Source of the DNA: an uncultured archaeon
GTDB taxonomy: Archaea; Asgardarchaeota; Lokiarchaeia; Sigyniarchaeales; SOKP01
Direction of reading: 5' to 3'
DNA length: 64,000 bases
Assembly (NCBI GenBank): GCA_964508365.1
Contig: CAZDTP010000009.1
Coordinates: 20,966-84,965, forward strand
In this document: positions 41,038 through 53,122 of the stretch, piece by piece
Position numbering within the stretch: the stretch's first letter is position 1
Layout of the letters: each line of letters starts with the position of its first letter
Position numbers and translations under genes: made by a program
Notes under the pieces: model-generated
The model's database searches: none
Told to the model about the DNA's origin: nothing
Seen by the model: only the letters and a program-made list of their open reading frames with translations

Positions 41038-41640
41038 ATGACTGATGATAAAGAAACCCCTATTTCACTGGAAGACATAGACGAAAAAGACATCCCAGAA
41101 AGAATCCCAACTAAATATTTAAACAACCGTGTGATTGTTTTTAACCCCCTCTTTGCATCATATTTATATGTTAAAATGAATTTTTTTGGGTCTCCTCTGG
41201 GGATAAGTAAGCCCCGTTTAGAGTATTTTTCTAAACCCTCAGAATTATCATTAATCGAAGCACTATTTTTGCTGAAAAATGATAAAATTACAATCTTTGA
41301 CCCAAAATTAGATAAATATTACTCTCATGATGAATTTTATGATATCTGTAAAAAAATTCACCATAAATTTGAAGAAAAATTCATAATTTACCAAGATTTA
41401 CGGCAAAAAGGCTATGTTCCTCGTCCAGGACTTAAGTTTGGAGCCGATTTTGTAGTATATAAAAAAGGTCCGGGATTAGAGCATTCACCCTTTATCGCAC
41501 ATGTTTTACCGCATGACGCAAAAATAACTGCTATTGATATGGTTCGAGCTGGAAGATTAGCTACATCAGTTCGAAAGAAGTTTGTAATTGCTAATCCGCT
41601 AACCATGAGTTATTACTTTTTTGAGTGGTTTAAACCTTAA
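41038..41640 (+). CDS. endA: tRNA-splicing endonuclease
   Basis: LSLIEALFL, IYQDLRQKGY, GLKFGADFVVY..GP..EHS, VRKKFVIA (catalytic Tyr/His/Lys pattern). Confidence 0.93.
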   Translation: MTDDKETPISLEDIDEKDIPERIPTKYLNNRVIVFNPLFASYLYVKMNFFGSPLGISKPRLEYFSKPSELSLIEALFLLKNDKITIFDPKLDKYYSHDEFYDICKKIHHKFEEKFIIYQDLRQKGYVPRPGLKFGADFVVYKKGPGLEHSPFIAHVLPHDAKITAIDMVRAGRLATSVRKKFVIANPLTMSYYFFEWFKP

Positions 41641-41674
41641 TTTAAGAGTTAGAAAAACCGAAATTGGATATTCT

Positions 41675-43504
41675 TTACTTTCGATGAATATTATAGACCA
41701 AACTTATTGTGTTATTTAATATTTCATCCTTAAATTTTTCGAGTGGTTTAAGATCATTATTAGGAACATAGTGGCTAATTTTCATAACCTCGTTAAGGAT
41801 TTCATCGCATTTTTTCTCATTTATTAGAAAGCCTTGCTTTACTAGTGGTATGCTACTATTATATAAGAGAATTATAATCTTGATAAGTCCTAACATTTTC
41901 CTGCTACTCGTAAAATTATCGACTTCATTAAAAGCATTCTGTATAAAAAAAGCATTTCTTATTAGATTGGCAATATAGAGTTCTAATTTTTGATCTTCAG
42001 CTAAATTTTTTAATCCTAGAAGCTGAGTTATGTATTTTAGGTCGTTTTCTTTTGCTAGTATCTCATTTACTTGCTTTCTACACTCAAACCAATCTAGCTT
42101 TACATCTGGCCAATCTACATCTATCTTCTCCCACCAATCTGTTAAATACACAGGGTAATTTGAATAAGAATTTATCCAACTAATAGCGGGATAATGTTTC
42201 AGATATGCTAATTTAGTATCTAAAGCCCATATTCCTTGAACAACGCGTTTTGTGGCGGATGTAACAGGCTCATTAAAATCTCCTGCGGGAGGAGATATTG
42301 ACCCTATAATAGTTATAGACCCTTTTCTACTTTTCCCGTCAGGATCGTTCCCTAAAGTCGTAAAGACACCAGCTCGTTCATAGAAACTTGATATTTTCGA
42401 GGGTAAATAAGCAGGGTAACCTTCTTCGGCAGGCATTTCCTCTAATAATCCCGAGATTTCTCTTAAAGATTCTGCCCATCGTGATATACTATCTGCTATA
42501 ACGGCAACATTGTATCCCATGTCTCTATAATATTCTGCGATTGTTATACCTGAGAAAAGGCTTGCTTCTCGAGCAGACACAGGCATATTTGAAGTATTTA
42601 CAATAAGAGCAATTCTTTCTAATAATGGGCGTCCAGTATTAGGATCAACAGTTTCTCTAAATTGTTTTAGAGCATTAGCAATTTCATTCCCTGGTTCCCC
42701 ACAACCTATGAATACAATCAAATCCGCGTCACAATACTTGGTTATGTTTTGCTGGATAACCGTCTTTCCAGTTCCAAATCCTCCTGGGACGGCAAAAGTA
42801 CCACCTTTTGCTACAGGAAATAATAAATCAATTATACGTAAACCAGTTATTAAGGGCTCATCAGGTTGCTTTTTTTCACAAAACGGTTTTCTCTTTGTTA
42901 CTGGCCATTTTTGCAACATGCAATAAGATTTTTCATCGTTATCATTCTGCAGGGTATAAATTTTATCAATAATTGTATAGTCTCCTTCTTCAGCTATAGA
43001 AGATAGGATTCCAGAATTTCTGGGGGGCACCATTATTATGTGTTTTAGAAACGATGTTTCTTGAACGATTCCAATTTCATCTCCACTAAGAATAAAATCA
43101 TTTACTTTCCTTGTTGGAATAAAATGCCACTTTTTAGTCCTTGAGAGAGGAGGAAATTCAAGTCCTCTATTTAATCTCCCTTCTTGAAAGTATTCAAATG
43201 TTATACCTAACGGCCTTTGAATTCCATCAAATACGTTTGCTAATAAACCTGGTGCTAATTCCATTGATAAAGGTTCATGGAGATTAACTACTTTTTCATT
43301 TAATTTTATACTAAACGTGTTTTCGAAAGACTGGGCTATGATATGGTCAGAATAAATTTGAATTACTTCACCCAAAAAATCGTGATTGCTAATTTTTATT
43401 AAATCTTTTAGTCGTACATTATTTTCCAACCCTTTAATCTCTACTAATGAGCCGTAAACAGCAGATATAAAGCCTCCCTTTGAATTTTTTTTTTCCACGA
43501 CCAT
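41675..43504 (-). CDS. Second A/V-type ATPase subunit A paralog with GER->GEP substitution (start revised to ATG 43504, 609 aa)
   Basis: GGFGTGKT P-loop, [34 protein letters not shown]; GCGEPGNE instead of GCGERGNE. Confidence 0.9.
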   Translation of the reverse strand: MVVEKKNSKGGFISAVYGSLVEIKGLENNVRLKDLIKISNHDFLGEVIQIYSDHIIAQSFENTFSIKLNEKVVNLHEPLSMELAPGLLANVFDGIQRPLGITFEYFQEGRLNRGLEFPPLSRTKKWHFIPTRKVNDFILSGDEIGIVQETSFLKHIIMVPPRNSGILSSIAEEGDYTIIDKIYTLQNDNDEKSYCMLQKWPVTKRKPFCEKKQPDEPLITGLRIIDLLFPVAKGGTFAVPGGFGTGKTVIQQNITKYCDADLIVFIGCGEPGNEIANALKQFRETVDPNTGRPLLERIALIVNTSNMPVSAREASLFSGITIAEYYRDMGYNVAVIADSISRWAESLREISGLLEEMPAEEGYPAYLPSKISSFYERAGVFTTLGNDPDGKSRKGSITIIGSISPPAGDFNEPVTSATKRVVQGIWALDTKLAYLKHYPAISWINSYSNYPVYLTDWWEKIDVDWPDVKLDWFECRKQVNEILAKENDLKYITQLLGLKNLAEDQKLELYIANLIRNAFFIQNAFNEVDNFTSSRKMLGLIKIIILLYNSSIPLVKQGFLINEKKCDEILNEVMKISHYVPNNDLKPLEKFKDEILNNTISLVYNIHRK

Positions 43505-43545
43505 TTTTACTAGATCCCCCTTATTTTTCTGTATTCTAGTATTTA

Positions 43546-44070
43546 TTAAGTTATACGCGTTCCACAAACAGGACATTTTTTCACTGATTTTGGAATTGTC
43601 ATTCCACAATTATTGCATTTCTTGATAATTCCTTTAAGTTCAATAGCTTTACCGCATATAGGGCATTTTTTTTTATAACTTGTTATGATCATCCCGCAAT
43701 TTTCACATTTGTTGATAAGAGGTTTGCGATATTTAAAATTTAAGTCTACTTCTCTAAATTTTTTTTCTACTGGTTCCTCTCGTTCTTCTTTTATAGTCAA
43801 TTCCAACTTTCTTGATGGCCGTTGAATCATATTCTGTTTTTTATCGGGATATAATTTTGAATACAGTGATTTCTGTTTCCTGTGCTTAAAAATCGATCCT
43901 AAAATTATCAAAGATATAAAAGCTAGTAATATAATAATTATAAACGGATTTACTCCAAAAATAAATAATACAATATATAAAAATACCATTATAATGATAA
44001 CAAGGACTATTATAAGAAAGATTTTTTTTTGGGATGAATTTTCTATGTTATCTTCATTTGTCATATTCAT
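43546..44070 (-). CDS. Membrane-anchored double zinc-ribbon protein
   Basis: Two N-terminal TM helices, then CENC-x10-CPIC and CNNC-x10-CPVC. Confidence 0.85.
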   Translation of the reverse strand: MNMTNEDNIENSSQKKIFLIIVLVIIIMVFLYIVLFIFGVNPFIIIILLAFISLIILGSIFKHRKQKSLYSKLYPDKKQNMIQRPSRKLELTIKEEREEPVEKKFREVDLNFKYRKPLINKCENCGMIITSYKKKCPICGKAIELKGIIKKCNNCGMTIPKSVKKCPVCGTRIT

Positions 44071-44103: not shown

Positions 44104-46383
44104 TTATAAATATTTTCTAGAAATATATTTTTCTGCTTTTTCAATATCTTGATAGAAGTTCTTTGATTCAATTTCTTTATCGATTTCTTCGGATATAACA
44201 TCTTTAATACTGCTAATTTCAAATGTAACTTCTGAATATTTATCGTTTAAATAAAAAGGAATATAAATTACTCCGCTTCCTTGATAAAATTTGAAGAAAA
44301 ATTCATAAAAATGCAGCCTCATAGCATTGATAAACACAAGTAATCCTTCAAGCAAAATAACGATCATGTTTCCAAAAACCAAACCTATATAACTAATTAT
44401 CTCGTTGACAATACCCCCTCCCTGAATTAAATTTACCATTGCAGTGATTGCTATCATCAATGATACGTGTGCTAAAGCTAATGCTAACAACCTAATATAA
44501 GATGATACGTTACTCATAATTGAGAGGAATGTTTCAAAAGTTTCCATTGTACCTTCCCCGATTAGACCACCTACTGATTCTTTTTTTAGATAAGAGATAT
44601 GCAATATTTTACCAATGGGCTTTAGTATAATTAACAAAATTGCGGGAATTATTGTTAATAAAATTGGAAAGGGCGGTTCTAACCAACTATATATATCAAA
44701 TCCATATATGAATATTAAAATCGTTCCTCCAGTTAATAAAAGTATTTTAACCATAGAATCTGTAAAACCTAAATATTTCCTCTTTTGTTTCCAATAATTC
44801 ATAAATTGAATAAACCAACCTAAATTAAGGTGAAAAACCCCAATCAGAACAGCAAATTTCAAAACTGTCATTATATTATCTAACGGATTATGCAGAGAAA
44901 TATTCAATATCGGAATGGTAATTGATTCTAAATGTAGGAAAACGGTATTGAATAATTTAATTTCAGGCATTCCAAAAAATTCACTGTATAAAAATCCAAA
45001 TATAATTGCACCTATTCCACAATATAAAATGATCCAACAAAAATTCAAGAAATCTCTACTTTTTTTACTTCTATATATAATAAAACCTAACAAACCAGAT
45101 AAAATTAAGACGATACCATGCCCGATATCTCCAAACATTATCCCAAACAAAAGTGGAAATGTTATTGCTATTATTGGGGTTGGATCAATCTCTGAATAAG
45201 CAGGGATTCCATACATTCTTGTTATTGTTTCAAATGGCCTAAATAAAACAAAATTCTTCATTATTGTGGGGGCAGAAGTTCTTAAGTCATCTTTTTCAAT
45301 TTTTCTATTTGCAATCTCCTCATTTAATTTAGATTTCTTTGCGCTTTTTGACTTCTCTGAATATTTTGATATTTTATCTGATGCTAATTTTACTTGCTTA
45401 TTTTTTACAATCTCAACAGATTCAATCGTAAGTTTATCTTGAAATTTATCTATTAGCCCTTGATAGATTTCTTTCTTTTTTTCTTTAGGTAAATAAAAAC
45501 TCAAACTTAATTGATCTGAAGATAATTCTTCAAATTGATAGGAGACCCAATTATATTCTTCTAGGTTTTGAATGATTTCATGAGCTGCTGCAAATAAGAG
45601 GAGATTATCGTCTCTTATTCGTTCTAATTCTCTCTGATTCTTATTTAGAGAGGTTATAATAAACTTAATTTCCTTCGCAATACGCGGAAAATTTATTCCG
45701 TCTGAAAGCAAATATTTCTTTAATATCGGTACCTCTTCAGCATGTATTATACGAATCCTCTCTCTAAATTCCGCTTCTTGTTCCTTTGGGTATATTATAA
45801 AAAATGCTATTCTATCATCACTTAAAAAATCATAGTGCAAAAAATTAGGAAAATGAGAGAAATCAAAGACTACTTCAATATTCTCCAAGTTCTTTGAAAA
45901 AGAAGTGAATGCTTTAAATTCTAAATGTTTAAATTTTAATAATTTATCTCGAGTTACTTTATATTTCTCTAAAAATAAGTAGCTTGCATGGATGTTGCTT
46001 ATTTTATCTAGTTCAATCTCAATTGAAGTCAAATATTTTTTCAATTCATTTATTCGGTTTGAAAAATAATTAATTTCATTAGATAACTGATTAAGGAGAT
46101 CATCAATATCTTTGCCTTTAAATTTTGGTCTATCGCTCTCTTCAAATGATAGTTTTTGGAAGTCAGATTCTGTGATGTTAAGATCCTTGAATAGCGTTTC
46201 TAAATTTTGGCTTAAGGTTTTGATTCTATCAAATAGTTCTTTATCCATCTCATAGCTACCACTTTTTTCAGATTTCGGTTTAATGTGAACTTGCTTGAGT
46301 TGGGAGAGGTGTTGTAAAAGAAGATTTTTATAATTGCGATTTAAATTTACTTTAAATAATACCATAACATTTTTTTTTGCCAT
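44104..46383 (-). CDS. atpI: A/V-type ATP synthase subunit I (a)
   Basis: EIDPTP, FGIMFGDIGHG, SNVSSYIRLLALALAH (essential Arg), RLHFYEFF.KFY.G. Confidence 0.95.
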   Translation of the reverse strand: MAKKNVMVLFKVNLNRNYKNLLLQHLSQLKQVHIKPKSEKSGSYEMDKELFDRIKTLSQNLETLFKDLNITESDFQKLSFEESDRPKFKGKDIDDLLNQLSNEINYFSNRINELKKYLTSIEIELDKISNIHASYLFLEKYKVTRDKLLKFKHLEFKAFTSFSKNLENIEVVFDFSHFPNFLHYDFLSDDRIAFFIIYPKEQEAEFRERIRIIHAEEVPILKKYLLSDGINFPRIAKEIKFIITSLNKNQRELERIRDDNLLLFAAAHEIIQNLEEYNWVSYQFEELSSDQLSLSFYLPKEKKKEIYQGLIDKFQDKLTIESVEIVKNKQVKLASDKISKYSEKSKSAKKSKLNEEIANRKIEKDDLRTSAPTIMKNFVLFRPFETITRMYGIPAYSEIDPTPIIAITFPLLFGIMFGDIGHGIVLILSGLLGFIIYRSKKSRDFLNFCWIILYCGIGAIIFGFLYSEFFGMPEIKLFNTVFLHLESITIPILNISLHNPLDNIMTVLKFAVLIGVFHLNLGWFIQFMNYWKQKRKYLGFTDSMVKILLLTGGTILIFIYGFDIYSWLEPPFPILLTIIPAILLIILKPIGKILHISYLKKESVGGLIGEGTMETFETFLSIMSNVSSYIRLLALALAHVSLMIAITAMVNLIQGGGIVNEIISYIGLVFGNMIVILLEGLLVFINAMRLHFYEFFFKFYQGSGVIYIPFYLNDKYSEVTFEISSIKDVISEEIDKEIESKNFYQDIEKAEKYISRKYL

Positions 46384-46404: not shown

Positions 46405-47037
46405 TTATCTAGTAATCAAATCTTTTGTATTTTTTAACCGAACATAATTTTCTCTTTCATTTTCCTCTAAAATATCTTTTATTTTTTTTATGTCATGTAC
46501 TAATTCGGGAATTATTATATTCTTTAATCCATTTATCCTACGATTGATCTTTTTAAAATTTTTAGCTAAATTTAACATTATATCTTCATCTTTTGCCAAG
46601 ATTATAAGTTTTTCAAAAAATTTAACTAGGATAATTATTAAATCATCTAGATAATGACTAGTATTTTCAAAAGAATAAGCAGGAAGTAACTCCTCCCTTA
46701 TCAATTCATATTCTAGTATTGGAATTAATGATCCAATTTTTTTTATATACTGTATATTGATTTTTGGCTTATATTGAATTTTACTTAACTTACTTATTAA
46801 ATTGAAATTTCTTTTTCCCATTTCTTTATATGTATGATTAAGTGTGATCATAGTTTCCTTATATAATTCTATAAAGATTTCACGATTCGTAATATAATTA
46901 TTCCAATTTTCTTTAACTTCAATCATTATTTGCTCTAATTTGAATTTTAAAAAGTTTTCACCTTTTACAGCAAAATTTAACCTTTTATTTAAATTCATTA
47001 AATTCGTCTTTGTAGGTTTAAACTCTCTAAAACTAAT
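46405..47037 (-). CDS. atpD: A/V-type ATP synthase subunit D (start extended to ATT 47037, 210 aa)
   Basis: KINRRINGLKNIIIP...LEENERENYVRLK; in-frame upstream KPTKTNL (cf. conserved .PTR.EL) lies before the first ATG at 46998. Confidence 0.9.
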   Translation of the reverse strand: MSFREFKPTKTNLMNLNKRLNFAVKGENFLKFKLEQIMIEVKENWNNYITNREIFIELYKETMITLNHTYKEMGKRNFNLISKLSKIQYKPKINIQYIKKIGSLIPILEYELIREELLPAYSFENTSHYLDDLIIILVKFFEKLIILAKDEDIMLNLAKNFKKINRRINGLKNIIIPELVHDIKKIKDILEENERENYVRLKNTKDLITR

Positions 47038-47043
47038 CGGTAC

Positions 47044-48435
47044 TTACACCCCTCCAACATAATATTTATCAATAAATTCATGATGGATTCTAAATAATTG
47101 ATTTCGTGGGATATGAGATAACGCTTTCCAAGCGATATTCAAAGTTGTGTTGATATCTCTTTCTTCATTTTGACCTTGATTTAAAAAAGTTTGTTCGAAT
47201 GCATTTCCAAATTTTATTAACGCTTTTTGGTTATAGTTTAAACCATCTTCTCCTACAATAGATATAAGATCTCTAACTTCAAGAGCCGCAGAGTAGGAAG
47301 ATAATAATTGCGAACTGACATCAGCATGATCTTCCCTTGTAGTTTCTTTACCTATAGCGTCCTTCATAAGTCGTGAAATTGAAGCTAAAACTTCAAAAGG
47401 CGGATAGATTCCGGTTTTATCCAAGTTTCTATTCAGGACCAATTGCCCTTCGGTGATATAGCCCGTAGTATCGGGGATTGGATGAGATATATCATCGTTT
47501 GGCATTGTAAGAATTGGTAATTGCGTAATCGTTCCTTTTTTACCTTTAATTTTGCCAGTTCTTTCATAGATCGACGCAAAATCGGAGTATAAGTAACCCG
47601 GGTAGCCTTTCCTACTTGGGATCTCCTCCTTAGCAGAGCTTAATTCTCTTAAAGCTTCCGCATAATTTGTCATATCAATTAGAATAACGAGAACATGCAT
47701 ATCCTTTTCAAAAGCGAAATATTCAGCTGTTGTAAGAGCTACTCGTGGAATGATTAATCTTTCCATAATTGGATCGTCAGCAAAATTGATAAAGGATATG
47801 ATATTCTGTATATTTCCGCTTTCTTGAAATTTGTTCATGAAAAAAATAGCTTCATCTTGAATAATACCAATCCCACAAAAAATGATCAAAAAAGGTTCTT
47901 TAGTTAAAACTTTTGCTTGAGTTACAATTTGAGCAGCTAATTGATTATGAGGCATTCCTTGACCACTAAAAATAGGAAGTTTCTGACCTCTTATTATCGT
48001 AAAAAGACCATCAATTACGGATATTCCAGTTTGGATTACTTCTGACGGATATTCTCTAGCAAATGGGTTAATAGGCAACCCATTTACATCCCTTTCTATT
48101 TCTGTTAATATTTCAGAATCTAATTCCTGTTTAGTATTAATATCGATTGGCTTTCCCAAAGAATTGAAGACTCTCCCAAACATATCACTAGAAATTTTGA
48201 TTTTAAACGAATCTTCGGTAAAAGTAATGGTAGAATTTTCAGATGATAATCCAGATGTATCTTCAAATACTTCAATTGTTATTGTATCTTCATCCATCTT
48301 TACAACTTGACCCGTGCGTTCATTGCCACCATTAGGACGGATTTTGACGATTTCACCATATTGTACGTCATGTTTATTATCTAAAAATAGTAAAGGTCCA
48401 ATAATTTGTTTAATTTTTCTATAAATTACACTCAT
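47044..48435 (-). CDS. atpB: A/V-type ATP synthase subunit B
   Basis: [60 protein letters not shown] (arginine finger). Confidence 0.97.
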
Positions 48436-50267
48436 TTTTTCTTTAAAACACCACGCATTAACTTTAAAGATTCTATTTCATCAATTAACTTTTTCTTTAA
48501 TTTTTCTATTTGTTTAAATCCATCATTAGGAACTGAGTTCCCAATTCTTAGAATATCATTTATTACGTTTAATTCTTTTAGATCATCAATTAAATACCCT
48601 TGATTTATAAGCTGTTGTCCCTCGTTATATAATAAGAGAATGATTTTTGTAAACCCTATTAATTTTGTAATATCCGTAAAACAATCAATGGGATCAAAAG
48701 CACTTTGGATTAAGAAACCATTTCTAGTTAATTTTGAGATAAAAATGATAAATTGTTGGTCTTCGGGTAAGTTTTCTTCTCCGATTAATTGGGTAACATT
48801 TTTTAACTCATTTTCTTGAGATAGAATGTTATTTAATTGTCTTCTACATTCATACCAATCAATATCTATCTCAGGCCAATAGATATCCCTTTCATACCAC
48901 CAATCTGAGATGAACTCAGGATATTTAGAGTATGATTTTAACCAATTTATAGCGGGATAGTGCTTTGAATAAGCTAAATTCGCATCTAATGCCCAAAAAG
49001 CTTGAACAAAACGTTTCGTAGTTGAAGTAACAGGTTCGCTGAAATCCCCAGAGGGAGGTGAAACCGATCCAATAATTGTTAAAGAGCCAAAGTTGTTAGT
49101 ATTTGAATCATCTTCACCATAGATATTGACAACTCCGGCCCTCTCATAAAAGCTAGAAATCTTTGAAGGTAAATAAGCCGGATATCCTTCTTCTGCGGGC
49201 ATTTCTTCTAACAATCCAGAGATTTCTCTTAAGGATTCAGCCCATCTTGATGTGCTATCAGCTAAGACTGCAACATCATATCCCATATCTCTATAATATT
49301 CTCCTATGGTAACTCCTGAAAAAATACTAGCTTCTCGTGCAGATACAGGCATGTTAGATGTGTTTGCTATTATAACAATTCGCTCCAATAACGGGCGACC
49401 ACTTTTGGGATCAACGATCTCAGAAAATTGCTTTAAGACATCCGCTATCTCATTTCCTCGCTCCCCACATCCAACAAAAACGATTATATCGGCATTACAC
49501 CATTTTGCTAAAGACTGTTGTATAACAGTCTTGCCAGTTCCAAAACCTCCAGGAACAGCTACAGTTCCTCCCTTTACAATAGGAAATAATAAATCAATTA
49601 CTCTCATTCCTGTTATTAATGGCTCTTGCGGATGACCCCGCTTTTTATAAGGTCGATTTTTGGTAATTGGCCATTTTTGAATCATATTAAACGAATTTTC
49701 TTTTAAACCTTCCTTCAAGCGATAAATCTCATCAATTACTGTATATTCCCCTTCCTCTGCGATATAAGTTAGTTTTCCGGAAATTCCTAATGGAACAATA
49801 ATTTTATGGTTAATCAGTTGAGTTTCTTGAACGGTTCCAACGACATACCCCGTATTTACATAGTCATTTACTTTTTTTAATGGTTTAAACATCCATTTTT
49901 TCTCTCGTGATAAGGATGGAAGGTCCACACCTCTCTCTAAAAAACCACCCGTTTTAGAATTTAAAAGTGTTGCTTCTAAGGGTCTTTGAATTCCATCAAA
50001 AATTTTTCCCAGTAATCCCGGTCCAAGCTCCATAGATAAAGGTTCCTTTAAACTAAAAACTTTTTCATTTAATTTTAAATTAGTTGTATTCTCAAAACAT
50101 TGAGCAATTACATGATTAGAATAAATTTGGATGACTTGACCTAATATTTTGTTCACCCTAATGAGATCATTAAGTCGTATTTGATTCTCTAATCCTTTTA
50201 TCTTTATTAGTGAACCATTGATAGCTGAAACGTATCCAAACTGTATTCCTTCTTGAGTTTCATTCAT
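48432..50267 (-). CDS. atpA: A/V-type ATP synthase subunit A (catalytic)
   Basis: [37 protein letters not shown]; stop overlaps the atpB start (ATGA). Confidence 0.97.
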
Positions 50268-50982
50268 AATCCTTCAAGTAATCATCTACAGCGAATTTTT
50301 GATTTTGAATAAATTGAATATAATTATTTTCAAGATTTTTTACATCTGGTTCAAAATCCGAAAAGATCTTTGAAAATTCAATTTCTATATTTGAGATATG
50401 TTTTTTTAATTGATTTTCAATAGTATAATTATAAGAAATATTTCCTGCGGTTACACCACATATAAAACCCCCAGTAAACTCATTTTCTGATTTAATTAAC
50501 TTTACCTTATTATTAATAATTTTATCGATCTTATTCATATTTCCACTAAAGAAGTTAAAATCTTTTGAATTTAATGTAATTATAATTTCTGGTGGTTTAT
50601 CGATAATATATTTAATACTCTTAAGAATTGTAAGTAGAAAGTCTATATAGCGTGAGTAGTTATTTTCAATTTTATCTTTTATTAAGTCTGTTAACATTGA
50701 AATCAGATCTAACACTAATTTATTCTTAGATCTTAATATTTCTTCTTTAATTTTCAAAAGAGAGGAAGAAAGAAAATTATTTAATAATTTATTATATGTT
50801 TCATTAAAATGCTCCCTCATTTTTTGAGAACTTTCTAAAATTCTCCCTAAATTTTTTTTTTTAATCTCCGCCAATTGAAAAAGAGTTTGCTGATTGATGC
50901 TCTTTATCTCACTATCAGCGCGCTTAATTAAATACAGACCTAAATGTCCAAATCTCTCTTTAATTTCTTTTCCTTCACTAAT
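50260..50982 (-). CDS. atpE: A/V-type ATP synthase subunit E (start extended to ATT 50982, 240 aa)
   Basis: C-terminal GGFIC...ISYNYTIENQL; helical N-terminus continues in frame 36 codons upstream of the track's TTG; position between F and A. Confidence 0.85.
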   Translation of the reverse strand: MSEGKEIKERFGHLGLYLIKRADSEIKSINQQTLFQLAEIKKKNLGRILESSQKMREHFNETYNKLLNNFLSSSLLKIKEEILRSKNKLVLDLISMLTDLIKDKIENNYSRYIDFLLTILKSIKYIIDKPPEIIITLNSKDFNFFSGNMNKIDKIINNKVKLIKSENEFTGGFICGVTAGNISYNYTIENQLKKHISNIEIEFSKIFSDFEPDVKNLENNYIQFIQNQKFAVDDYLKDYE

Positions 50983-50998
50983 AACTTATCATCTCATT

Positions 50999-51316
50999 TT
51001 ATATGAGTTCTTGTATTAATTCATATATCATATCAAAAATTTTATCGTGATTTGTAATATCTTCTTGAAAAATATCTGGTAATAAATAGACAAATGGTAT
51101 CCTATTATTTGCCTTAAAATCTAATAAATGTTCAAAAAGATCATCTGGTAAATCCATATTTACAATGATCATTGCGATTGATGGTTTTTTTGTTATATCT
51201 TCGAATGTTTTTAAAAAATCTTCTTCATGATTCACTACAGTCCCTTCAATTCCTAAAAGCCCAAATAAAGAAACTATCTCTGCGTGCCCAATAACATGTA
51301 TTTTTTCTTCAACCAT
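50999..51316 (-). CDS. atpF: A/V-type ATP synthase subunit F
   Basis: KIHVIG..E.VSLFGLLGIEG; 105 aa; operon position. Confidence 0.9.
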   Translation of the reverse strand: MVEEKIHVIGHAEIVSLFGLLGIEGTVVNHEEDFLKTFEDITKKPSIAMIIVNMDLPDDLFEHLLDFKANNRIPFVYLLPDIFQEDITNHDKIFDMIYELIQELI

Positions 51317-51627
51317 TAAAAATCAAAACCTAATTTCTCAAATATAGAAATAGTTAAATCTTCTTTATGTTCATCATAATATTTTTCTATTTTACTACAT
51401 AAATTCATTAATAATTCTTCAAAATTATCCGATTTTTCAGTCATTTTTTTTGAAACTGTTGCTAATGCATTATTAATAATTTCTTGGTTCTTACGAGTTG
51501 TTTTTTCTAGTATTTTTTCTTGAGCAATTCTTTCCTTTCGTATTCCTTCTAAACTTTCTTGTTTAGCTTTTTCAATTAAATCTTCATAAATATTTTCTAT
51601 CTCTTCAACCCATTCAAAAATTTTCAT
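51316..51627 (-). CDS. atpH: A/V-type ATP synthase subunit H/G (peripheral stalk)
   Basis: 103-aa charged coiled coil (EEIE...LIEKAKQE), translationally coupled to F. Confidence 0.7.
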   Translation of the reverse strand: MKIFEWVEEIENIYEDLIEKAKQESLEGIRKERIAQEKILEKTTRKNQEIINNALATVSKKMTEKSDNFEELLMNLCSKIEKYYDEHKEDLTISIFEKLGFDF

Positions 51628-51664: not shown

Positions 51665-52705
51665 TTATCTAAACCTTTTATGATTGATTTTTATAACTTT
51701 TGGCAAAATTTCAAATCTCATTTCTTTTTCTTTTATGATTAAAACTTCCAGTATTTTAAAAATGGTGAAATAAGCAATATTATCGATTTTAATTTTAAAT
51801 TTTTTAAAATAATACGAAATATAAAATTCCTCAATTGATCTTATTAAGTGCTTCTGATCACTTTTAAATACTATGAAAAATGACTTTATTTCCGCAGTGG
51901 TCCTGAAATATATTTCGATGGTTGATACAAAATCATTAAGATCAGTTAAATTTAACAAATACTCAAGTTTACCTTCATCTAAGAATAAATAATTGTGAAC
52001 TAAAAATTGCTTTAATAATGATCTCTCAACATTATTTGTAATTCCCCTATATATTAAATTTAAATTATAAATCTCCGTTTTATATTTCACAAATAATGAA
52101 ATTATTGTTTTCTCATCTTTATTCAAATTTTGGAGTTGTAATTGAAGGTGTTTATAATATAATTGATCCAAAAAGGCTTCTAAGACAAAAATTTCCTTGT
52201 TTTTTTTTAAGTAGAGAACTCCTTCTCTAATCGCTATGTTGTATAGTGTTCTTTTCAACAGGATTTGTATCTCATCTAATGTTGTAACTTTAAGCAATTC
52301 TTCAATTAAATTTGTGTTGTCTAGATATTCTTCAGCCAAAAAATTAATATCTCTTCTCACTTCTTCTTGAGTCCTTCCTATAATTAAGCTAATTATTATT
52401 TGCTTAAGATTTTGAATTTCAAACTTCATCAGATACTTTTTCAAGAAATTTCTCATGTTCAATGGGGAAAAATGCATTATTTTCCCAACTAGCATAATAT
52501 AATTATTAATAAGAGCTCCTTCTATATTCTCTGTTGTATAATCTTCAATTTCTATATTTGGATAATATCGTTTTATGGATTCCATAAAGATTTCGATATC
52601 ATTGATAGTTTTAATTTTTTTTAATGTATCATCATCAATAATTAAATTTTTGATATAATCAATTTTAATGTATGTATAGGCATAAGATGGGATAATGATA
52701 CTCGT
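51665..52705 (-). CDS. atpC: A/V-type ATP synthase subunit C/d (start extended to ACG 52705, 346 aa)
   Basis: KFEIQNLKQII, EAFLDQLYY, EIYNLNLIYRG; in-frame upstream PSYAYTYIKID (cf. conserved .Y.Y..ARI) lies 40 codons before the first ATG. Confidence 0.85.
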   Translation of the reverse strand, partial: TSIIIPSYAYTYIKIDYIKNLIIDDDTLKKIKTINDIEIFMESIKRYYPNIEIEDYTTENIEGALINNYIMLVGKIMHFSPLNMRNFLKKYLMKFEIQNLKQIIISLIIGRTQEEVRRDINFLAEEYLDNTNLIEELLKVTTLDEIQILLKRTLYNIAIREGVLYLKKNKEIFVLEAFLDQLYYKHLQLQLQNLNKDEKTIISLFVKYKTEIYNLNLIYRGITNNVERSLLKQFLVHNYLFLDEGKLEYLLNLTDLNDFVSTIEIYFRTTAEIKSFFIVFKSDQKHLIRSIEEFYISYYFKKFKIKIDNIAYFTIFKILEVLIIKEKEMRFEILPKVIKINHKRFR

Positions 52706-52747: not shown

Positions 52748-53122
52748 TTAAATCGGAGGAGTTGGGATTTTTGTCCAAAGTAGGACTGCTACAATTAAAC
52801 CATATATTGCTAAAGCTTCACAGAAAGCAACGATTAAAAATGCTTTAAAAAAAGTCTCTTCTCTTTCGGATAAAGACGATATTGCTGCTGTCCCGACTGT
52901 CCTTAAAGCCACTGCACTTCCTAATACCGATGCAGAAAGGGTTATAGCAGCCGAAATCGCTAGAGCTGCTGCGGTTACAGAATTATAATAATCATAGCTC
53001 GTTACCTGAGCAGCTACCATAGTAATAACACCATCTACCGTTAGAAATACAGTTAGCACCAGAACTAATTGAAACAATCCAAGTAAGACATAAAATTTTC
53101 TTTTTCCATTCAAATTTTTCAC
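52748..53122 (-). CDS. atpK: A/V-type ATP synthase proteolipid subunit K (c); start GTG 53122 or TTG 53113
   Basis: Single hairpin with FCEALAIYGLIVAVLL (ion-binding Glu), SEREE.F loop, extra N-terminal hydrophobic segment. Confidence 0.93.
   Translation of the reverse strand: MKNLNGKRKFYVLLGLFQLVLVLTVFLTVDGVITMVAAQVTSYDYYNSVTAAALAISAAITLSASVLGSAVALRTVGTAAISSLSEREETFFKAFLIVAFCEALAIYGLIVAVLLWTKIPTPPI

Follow-up and report, generated by a model that had tools for sequence, protein, structure and literature searches.

A subunit A paralog with proline at the GER arginine, conserved in the rotary ATPase operon of one Lokiarchaeial family

Why would an archaeon with a single rotary ATPase operon close that operon with a second copy of the catalytic subunit in which a catalytic arginine has become proline? 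The question is raised by a 64,000-nucleotide stretch of an uncultured archaeon of the Lokiarchaeia (order Sigyniarchaeales; contig CAZDTP010000009.1, positions 20,966 to 84,965), which we call the window. The genome's only rotary ATPase operon lies in it on the minus strand, from 53122 to 41675. The operon's last gene, here called A' (41675-43504, minus strand), was recognized by domain search and BLASTP as a 609-amino-acid paralog of the A/V-ATPase catalytic subunit A. Genome-wide there are two A genes (canonical atpA and A') and one B gene, and no others. Descriptions of prokaryotic rotary ATPases give their heads three identical catalytic subunits and three noncatalytic ones. We consider it reasonably probable that A' is a nucleotide-binding but catalysis-deficient paralog of A, kept by selection, that pairs with the shared B subunit in the A1 head.

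A' carries the full architecture of an A subunit, with the Pfam domains ATP-synt_ab_N, Xtn bulge, ATP-synt_ab, and ATP-synt_VA_C (PF02874, PF16886, PF00006, and PF22919, each above its cut-off). It shares 61% identity with atpA over 593 residues (BLASTP) but only 32% with the genome's B, branches within the A clade in the tree, and matches solved A subunits with E values of 1e-146 to 1e-163, its best solved relative being that of Pyrococcus horikoshii (E ~1e-163). The Walker A P-loop, GGFGTGKT (residues 241-248; 42761-42784, minus strand), is intact and, like the catalytic Glu270, invariant in 43 A' cluster representatives; the Walker B Asp and the SAREAS Arg are both kept as well. A reading of A' as noncatalytic subunit B is ruled out by the intact P-loop, the bulge, the identity to A, and the A-clade placement. 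Architecture, P-loop, Glu, and an operon with a B partner all place A' in the A/V-type catalytic subunit A family, but it departs from that family at the GER arginine, where all A' have Pro271. The motif pair GCGERGNE and DSTS of atpA appears in A' as GCGEPGNE and DSIS in the BLASTP alignment, and the proline codon, read directly, is CCA (42692-42694, minus strand), at the position of atpA Arg270 and Enterococcus hirae A Arg262. A first-pass annotation had already described a 609-amino-acid A paralog at the operon's end with intact P-loop and Glu and this CCA codon; direct reading, BLASTP, and Pfam confirm all of it.

The proline is a property of a lineage rather than of one assembly. In the same genus, the 16 genomes that have a second A about 6.7 kb downstream of A read GCGEPGNE in the second copy without exception (16/16) and GCGERGNE in every first copy. 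In an alignment spanning seven genera, Pro stands in 31/31 A' sequences and Arg in 37/37 A sequences of the family, and frames are intact in all A' copies examined. Among metagenomic clusters (90% identity, from a collection of 5.8 billion proteins), GEP is found in 94 of the 120 best; for one GEP cluster, P0102, the source is a marine sediment metagenome (LCGC14). When 399 Asgard genomes were scanned with a degenerate DNA pattern encoding GCGEPGNE, 75 matched, all in one family (f1), with no match in 265 other Asgard genomes, and the reversed pattern, run as a control, matched none of the Asgard genomes. With a looser pattern, A' was found in 80 of the 135 genomes of this family, in seven genera and never in more than one copy per genome. 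The proline is encoded by CCA, CCT, CCG, and CCC; with all four codons in use, selection therefore acts on the amino acid. That the proline is a sequencing or assembly error, or confined to this genome, either of which the first-pass annotation had named as refuting its reading, is ruled out by the spread through the family and the metagenomic clusters and by the use of all four codons.

A GEP scan of 185,579 species genomes returned 81 matches. Eight were bacterial records and proved to be HypB N termini or out-of-frame chance matches; five were "uncultured archaeon" records, all of which translated to A'; the rest were metagenome-assembled genomes labeled as Promethearchaeota or as another Asgard group, whose record titles alone were used for the count. 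With the Asgard-labeled matches thus taken by title, no GEP A subunit in an ATPase context was found elsewhere among the species genomes. The first-pass annotation had proposed to check GEP across Lokiarchaeia at large; the motif is conserved within one family, to which the paralog is limited.

A' is also under strong purifying selection, like atpA. In pairwise Nei-Gojobori estimates for the same genome pairs, the ratio of nonsynonymous to synonymous substitution rates (dN/dS) was 0.09-0.21 for A' and 0.06-0.15 for A, which bears out the earlier view of A' as a retained gene and, with frames intact in all copies and dN/dS near 0.1, the earlier remark that it lacks disabling stops; a pseudogene is ruled out on the same grounds. 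Nor is its likeness to A maintained by gene conversion: in this genome, the codons for residues common to A and A' agree 47% of the time, and codon usage alone predicts 45%. Because synonymous sites are saturated and codon identity is at the chance level, conversion is ruled out, and the identical protein stretches are held by selection. Site entropies of the two proteins are correlated (Spearman 0.76), and 127 of the 129 columns invariant in both A and A' hold the same residue. The mean site entropy is 0.98 in A' versus 0.79 in A, the excess coming mostly from the C-terminal domain and the residues that directly follow the P-loop/GER region. Constraint on the N-terminal crown and on the nucleotide-binding domain is as strong as in A.

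Which differences define A'? Between the 37 A and 31 A' sequences only two are fixed, R270P and I315L in atpA numbering. The second falls in the SAREAS(I/L)F segment, where Ile in 37/37 A faces Leu in 31/31 A' (Leu316 of A', codon at 42557-42559, minus strand). No compensating basic residue is fixed in A', none having been gained at any fixed A'-specific site. Against 42 A sequences (family A plus outgroups), twelve sites invariant in 42/42 are relaxed in A', among them Pro501 and the motif-adjacent V248 and Q250 (after the P-loop), D276 (arm helix), T339 (by the Walker B Asp), and S410. T339 is the DSIS site, in this genome Ile340 of A' (codon at 42485-42487, minus strand). The first-pass annotation had counted DSIS as a feature of A', which was an over-reading: the site is Thr in 42/42 A, and among the 31 A' it is Ile in 16 and Thr in 15, while one partial A' reads DSMS. 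DSIS thus marks only part of the clade and is ruled out as a signature of A'.

Trees indicate where the second copy came from. In a 43-row tree, A' forms one clade (Shimodaira-Hasegawa-like approximate likelihood ratio test, 98) whose internal branching mirrors the A subtree. A free search on 73 rows placed two A rows from genus g11 without resolution at the base of A', but a tree constrained to keep A' monophyletic had a log likelihood 17.5 higher (approximately unbiased test, p-AU 0.71), which rules out several independent GEP origins. Because A' is monophyletic and the branching of A is mirrored, we conclude that there was one duplication inside the family, followed by vertical codescent of A and A'. 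The quirks that the first-pass annotation saw in both copies, and the lineage-internal duplication that it proposed from them, are borne out by the tree.

What would the loss of the arginine do? With a 7-residue tag offset allowed for, Pro271 aligns to Arg262 of the E. hirae A subunit (NtpA). In V1 structures, the gamma-phosphate is gripped by Lys238, by Arg262 of an "arm" (residues 261-275), and by an Arg finger from B (PMC5095293). The counterpart of the GER arginine in Escherichia coli F1 is beta-Arg182, which takes part in MgATP binding and not in MgADP binding; the mutants R182Q and R182K lose ATP synthesis, have low ATPase, and do not bind inorganic phosphate (Pi) (PMC3268026). Because the E. 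hirae arginine contacts the gamma-phosphate and the E. coli substitutions lose function, A' is, by analogy with these homologues, probably deficient in catalysis.

On the mechanism that we favor, A' would keep the A fold and the nucleotide pocket (P-loop, Glu, and Walker B Asp) without the arginine that binds the gamma-phosphate or Pi and stabilizes the transition state. The only contacts of A subunits in the A3B3 ring are with B and with the central and peripheral stalks. A' would share its B with atpA, because the genome has one B gene, and with contacts confined to B and the stalks it could replace A anywhere in the ring with B unchanged. We compared B sequences from genomes with and without A' (24 versus 8), and no site separates them, which gives no sign of coadaptation of B to A'. 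Most likely, A' enters A3B3-type heads: it would pair with B, occupy at least one of the places of A in the A1 head, and offer a site that binds nucleotide, ADP better than ATP or Pi, without chemistry. In a head with one dead site, ATP-driven rotation would be expected to stall while ion-driven rotation could still pass. The likeliest role would be to curb futile ATP hydrolysis, or to adjust coupling, in cells short of energy.

A more specific version of this proposal, which we regard as quite improbable, is that A2A'B3-type hybrid heads form a one-way machine making 2 ATP per turn instead of 3, so that the ion-to-ATP ratio would go from n/3 to n/2. Driven by ATP, such a head would stall at the dead site; driven by ions, it would still make ATP. 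If this were true, the n/2 ratio would let energy-starved sediment archaea make ATP at lower ion-motive force, and head composition would be a heritable or adjustable gear ratio.

Several observations weigh against a head-subunit role. The zinc-ribbon gene that normally precedes A' is followed directly by the endonuclease gene in G001, G003, G006, and G020, so that A' is cleanly absent (G020 being the sister of G018, which has it), and A' is likewise missing after the zinc-ribbon gene in the operons read from genera g15 and g22. In g16 the operon lacks A', and a copy reading CCGEPGNE sits on a long branch elsewhere in the genome among unrelated genes, hydrolase and phosphatase genes included. 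Because A' has been lost in several species and displaced in g16, it is accessory, not essential. The C-terminal domain varies more in A' than in A, and Pro501, in the NLPEDQ turn of that domain, is invariant in A but free in A'. In an AlphaFold2 (AF2) monomer model of A', Pro271 falls after strand 262-269 and before helix 273-284, where the N terminus of the arm would be expected, but the model is of only moderate confidence (predicted local distance difference test, pLDDT, 67.8).

The g16 copy, away from the operon, fits an operon-independent role as well, and it speaks for placing A' outside the rotary ATPase altogether, as a stand-alone nucleotide-binding protein or sensor or as part of another complex, its operon position being a relic of tandem duplication. 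The dispensability of A' in species whose operon is otherwise unchanged and the relaxed C-terminal domain point the same way. Yet A' remains last in the operons read from five other genera (g1, g11, g18, g20, and g21), in some of them despite rearrangement of the neighbors, it keeps the full A architecture, and its crown and nucleotide-binding domain are held as tightly as those of A. No dedicated partner gene travels with it in the operons read in relatives, and the zinc-ribbon gene occurs without A' too. We therefore think a function outside the ATPase unlikely.

Unlikely to a similar degree is a role as an assembly factor or placeholder, a protein that binds B or the stalks transiently or caps an idle Ao sector and is absent from the mature enzyme. 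A-like surfaces combined with a loss of chemistry would suit a nonworking binder, as would dispensability in some lineages; however, conservation over the full length, a dN/dS near 0.1, and an entire nucleotide pocket seem to exceed what a simple placeholder would require.

That A' is instead a fully active catalytic isoform, with some other residue taking over from the arginine, is very doubtful. The retained P-loop, catalytic Glu, Walker B, and SAREAS Arg would allow it, but the only other fixed change is the Ile-to-Leu substitution, with no basic residue gained, and A' has relaxed motif-adjacent sites that do not vary in A. Moreover, in E. coli F1 ATP synthesis is already lost with the conservative R182K substitution (PMC3268026). 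An artifactual codon or a decaying pseudogene has a negligible chance of being correct, since intact frames, four proline codons, and dN/dS near 0.1 recur in independent assemblies from many studies.

How does A' compare with known head subunits? It has the architecture, P-loop, Glu, and Walker B in common with canonical A subunits (P. horikoshii 1VDZ/3I4L, E. hirae 3VR2, and Thermus thermophilus 3A5C) but differs from them in carrying Pro for the GER arginine in every member, in being an unpaired second copy beside one shared B, and in having been lost in some species. The noncatalytic subunits, B of A/V-type and alpha of F-type enzymes, are likely functional analogues: they descend from a duplicated catalytic subunit, occupy a head position, and bind nucleotide without turnover. 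That duplication is ancient, predating the last universal common ancestor (PMC10656485), and B has lost its P-loop, whereas A' arose from A recently, by a duplication at the level of the family, and keeps both P-loop and Glu. The E. coli beta-Arg182 mutants lack the same GER residue, and their phenotype is the one that would be expected of A'. They are, however, laboratory changes to an F-type enzyme that affect its three beta subunits alike, whereas A' is natural, selected, and present beside wild-type A.

A further comparison is offered by degenerate bacterial A-like proteins, members of the A family that, like A', lack a catalytic residue; in them it is the Glu that is gone, in A' the Arg. 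Among representatives at 50% identity, the degenerate-GER set comprises P0181, P0184, P0191, P0204, P0217, P0233, P0240, and P0262, with CGARGNE in P0191, CGGRGNE in P0262, and CGLSGNE as a further example. Two degenerate A-like loci were looked up (L166, 9001-10842, and L167, 9001-10662). Each belongs to a separate bacterial operon and has a B-like gene of its own beside it, in contrast to A', an extra copy within one operon. Both lie on bacterial contigs, one with I and c genes and the other with no membrane-sector genes nearby.

A full-text search of the literature found no description of the A' paralog. If the proposed role is true, A' would be a conserved, selected third type of head subunit from which exactly one catalytic ligand has been removed, a natural counterpart of the F1 hybrid-motor experiments. 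It would then give an ATP synthase a new means of regulation or re-gearing, in an archaeal lineage used to model the eukaryotic host. The paralog can also mislead annotation. A transporter survey reports that "Loki" alone combines an A-type ATPase with a eukaryote-like V-type one (PMC7997004); this report may partly reflect an A/A' pair, since the LCGC14 metagenome holds the GEP copy P0102.

The setting of A' in the window is that of a complete operon, in the order K/c, C/d, a 103-amino-acid gene, F, E-like, A, B, D, I, zinc ribbon, A', all on the minus strand. It opens with the K/c proteolipid (52748-53122; PF00137 match at ~52778-52957) and C/d (51665-52585). The 103-amino-acid gene (51316-51627) matches no family, and calling it H-like is a guess from size and position. 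F (50999-51316) and the 204-amino-acid E-like gene (50260-50874) follow. Canonical atpA (48432-50267; GCGERGNE by domain search and BLASTP) and the genome's sole B gene, atpB (47044-48435; domain search), precede atpD of the central stalk (46405-46998; PF01813) and atpI for subunit I/a (44104-46383; PF01496). Between atpI and A' lies a 174-amino-acid gene for a membrane-anchored double zinc ribbon (43546-44070), recognized by a membrane segment and two CxxC zinc ribbons.

The A' start codon is the ATG at 43504-43502, and the open frame reaches back to a TTG at 43609. Read directly, the sequence has a Shine-Dalgarno-like GGGGGA at 43515-43520 (minus strand), 10 nucleotides upstream of this ATG, no T-run within the 41-nucleotide spacer preceding A', and a T5 run at 41653-41657 (minus strand), 17 nucleotides past the stop codon, that resembles an archaeal terminator and is suggestive only. 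Together these features are suggestive of A' being cotranscribed as the last cistron.

The zinc-ribbon gene comes after atpI whether or not A' is present, and it does so in another family of the order too (loci in relatives: L053-L056, L079, L080, L082, L084, and L062). Because it also terminates A'-less operons, it is ruled out as a specific partner or tether of A' and is simply a conserved operon member. On the other side of A', a tRNA-splicing endonuclease gene (41038-41640, plus strand; PF01974 and PF02778) is convergent with it, about 34 nucleotides from its stop codon. The pairing is retained in most relatives, and A' is last with the convergent endonuclease gene after it in the five genera listed above. 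In some species (loci L039, L049, L051, and L068), the flanks have been rearranged: the endonuclease and MEMO-like genes that normally come after A' stand upstream of K instead, and A' is still last in the operon.

Other loci show further variation of the ATPase genes. In G034 (contig C65, 18543-21923) and L084 (12098-15556), atpA is interrupted by an intein-sized insert, giving open frames of 1137 and 1153 amino acids, and many representative matches of 900-1130 amino acids resemble these insert-bearing genes. A 100%-complete genome of the same genus code (L057; G008, contig C24, 182000-198000) has only a distant A/B pair of 48-50% identity in a different arrangement, the usual operon being absent, which suggests replacement or a binning problem. 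Finally, a sister-family genome, G031, has two different ATPase operons (L052 and L060, on contigs C121 and C112), both GER, one near the operon of the A'-bearing family and the other distant.
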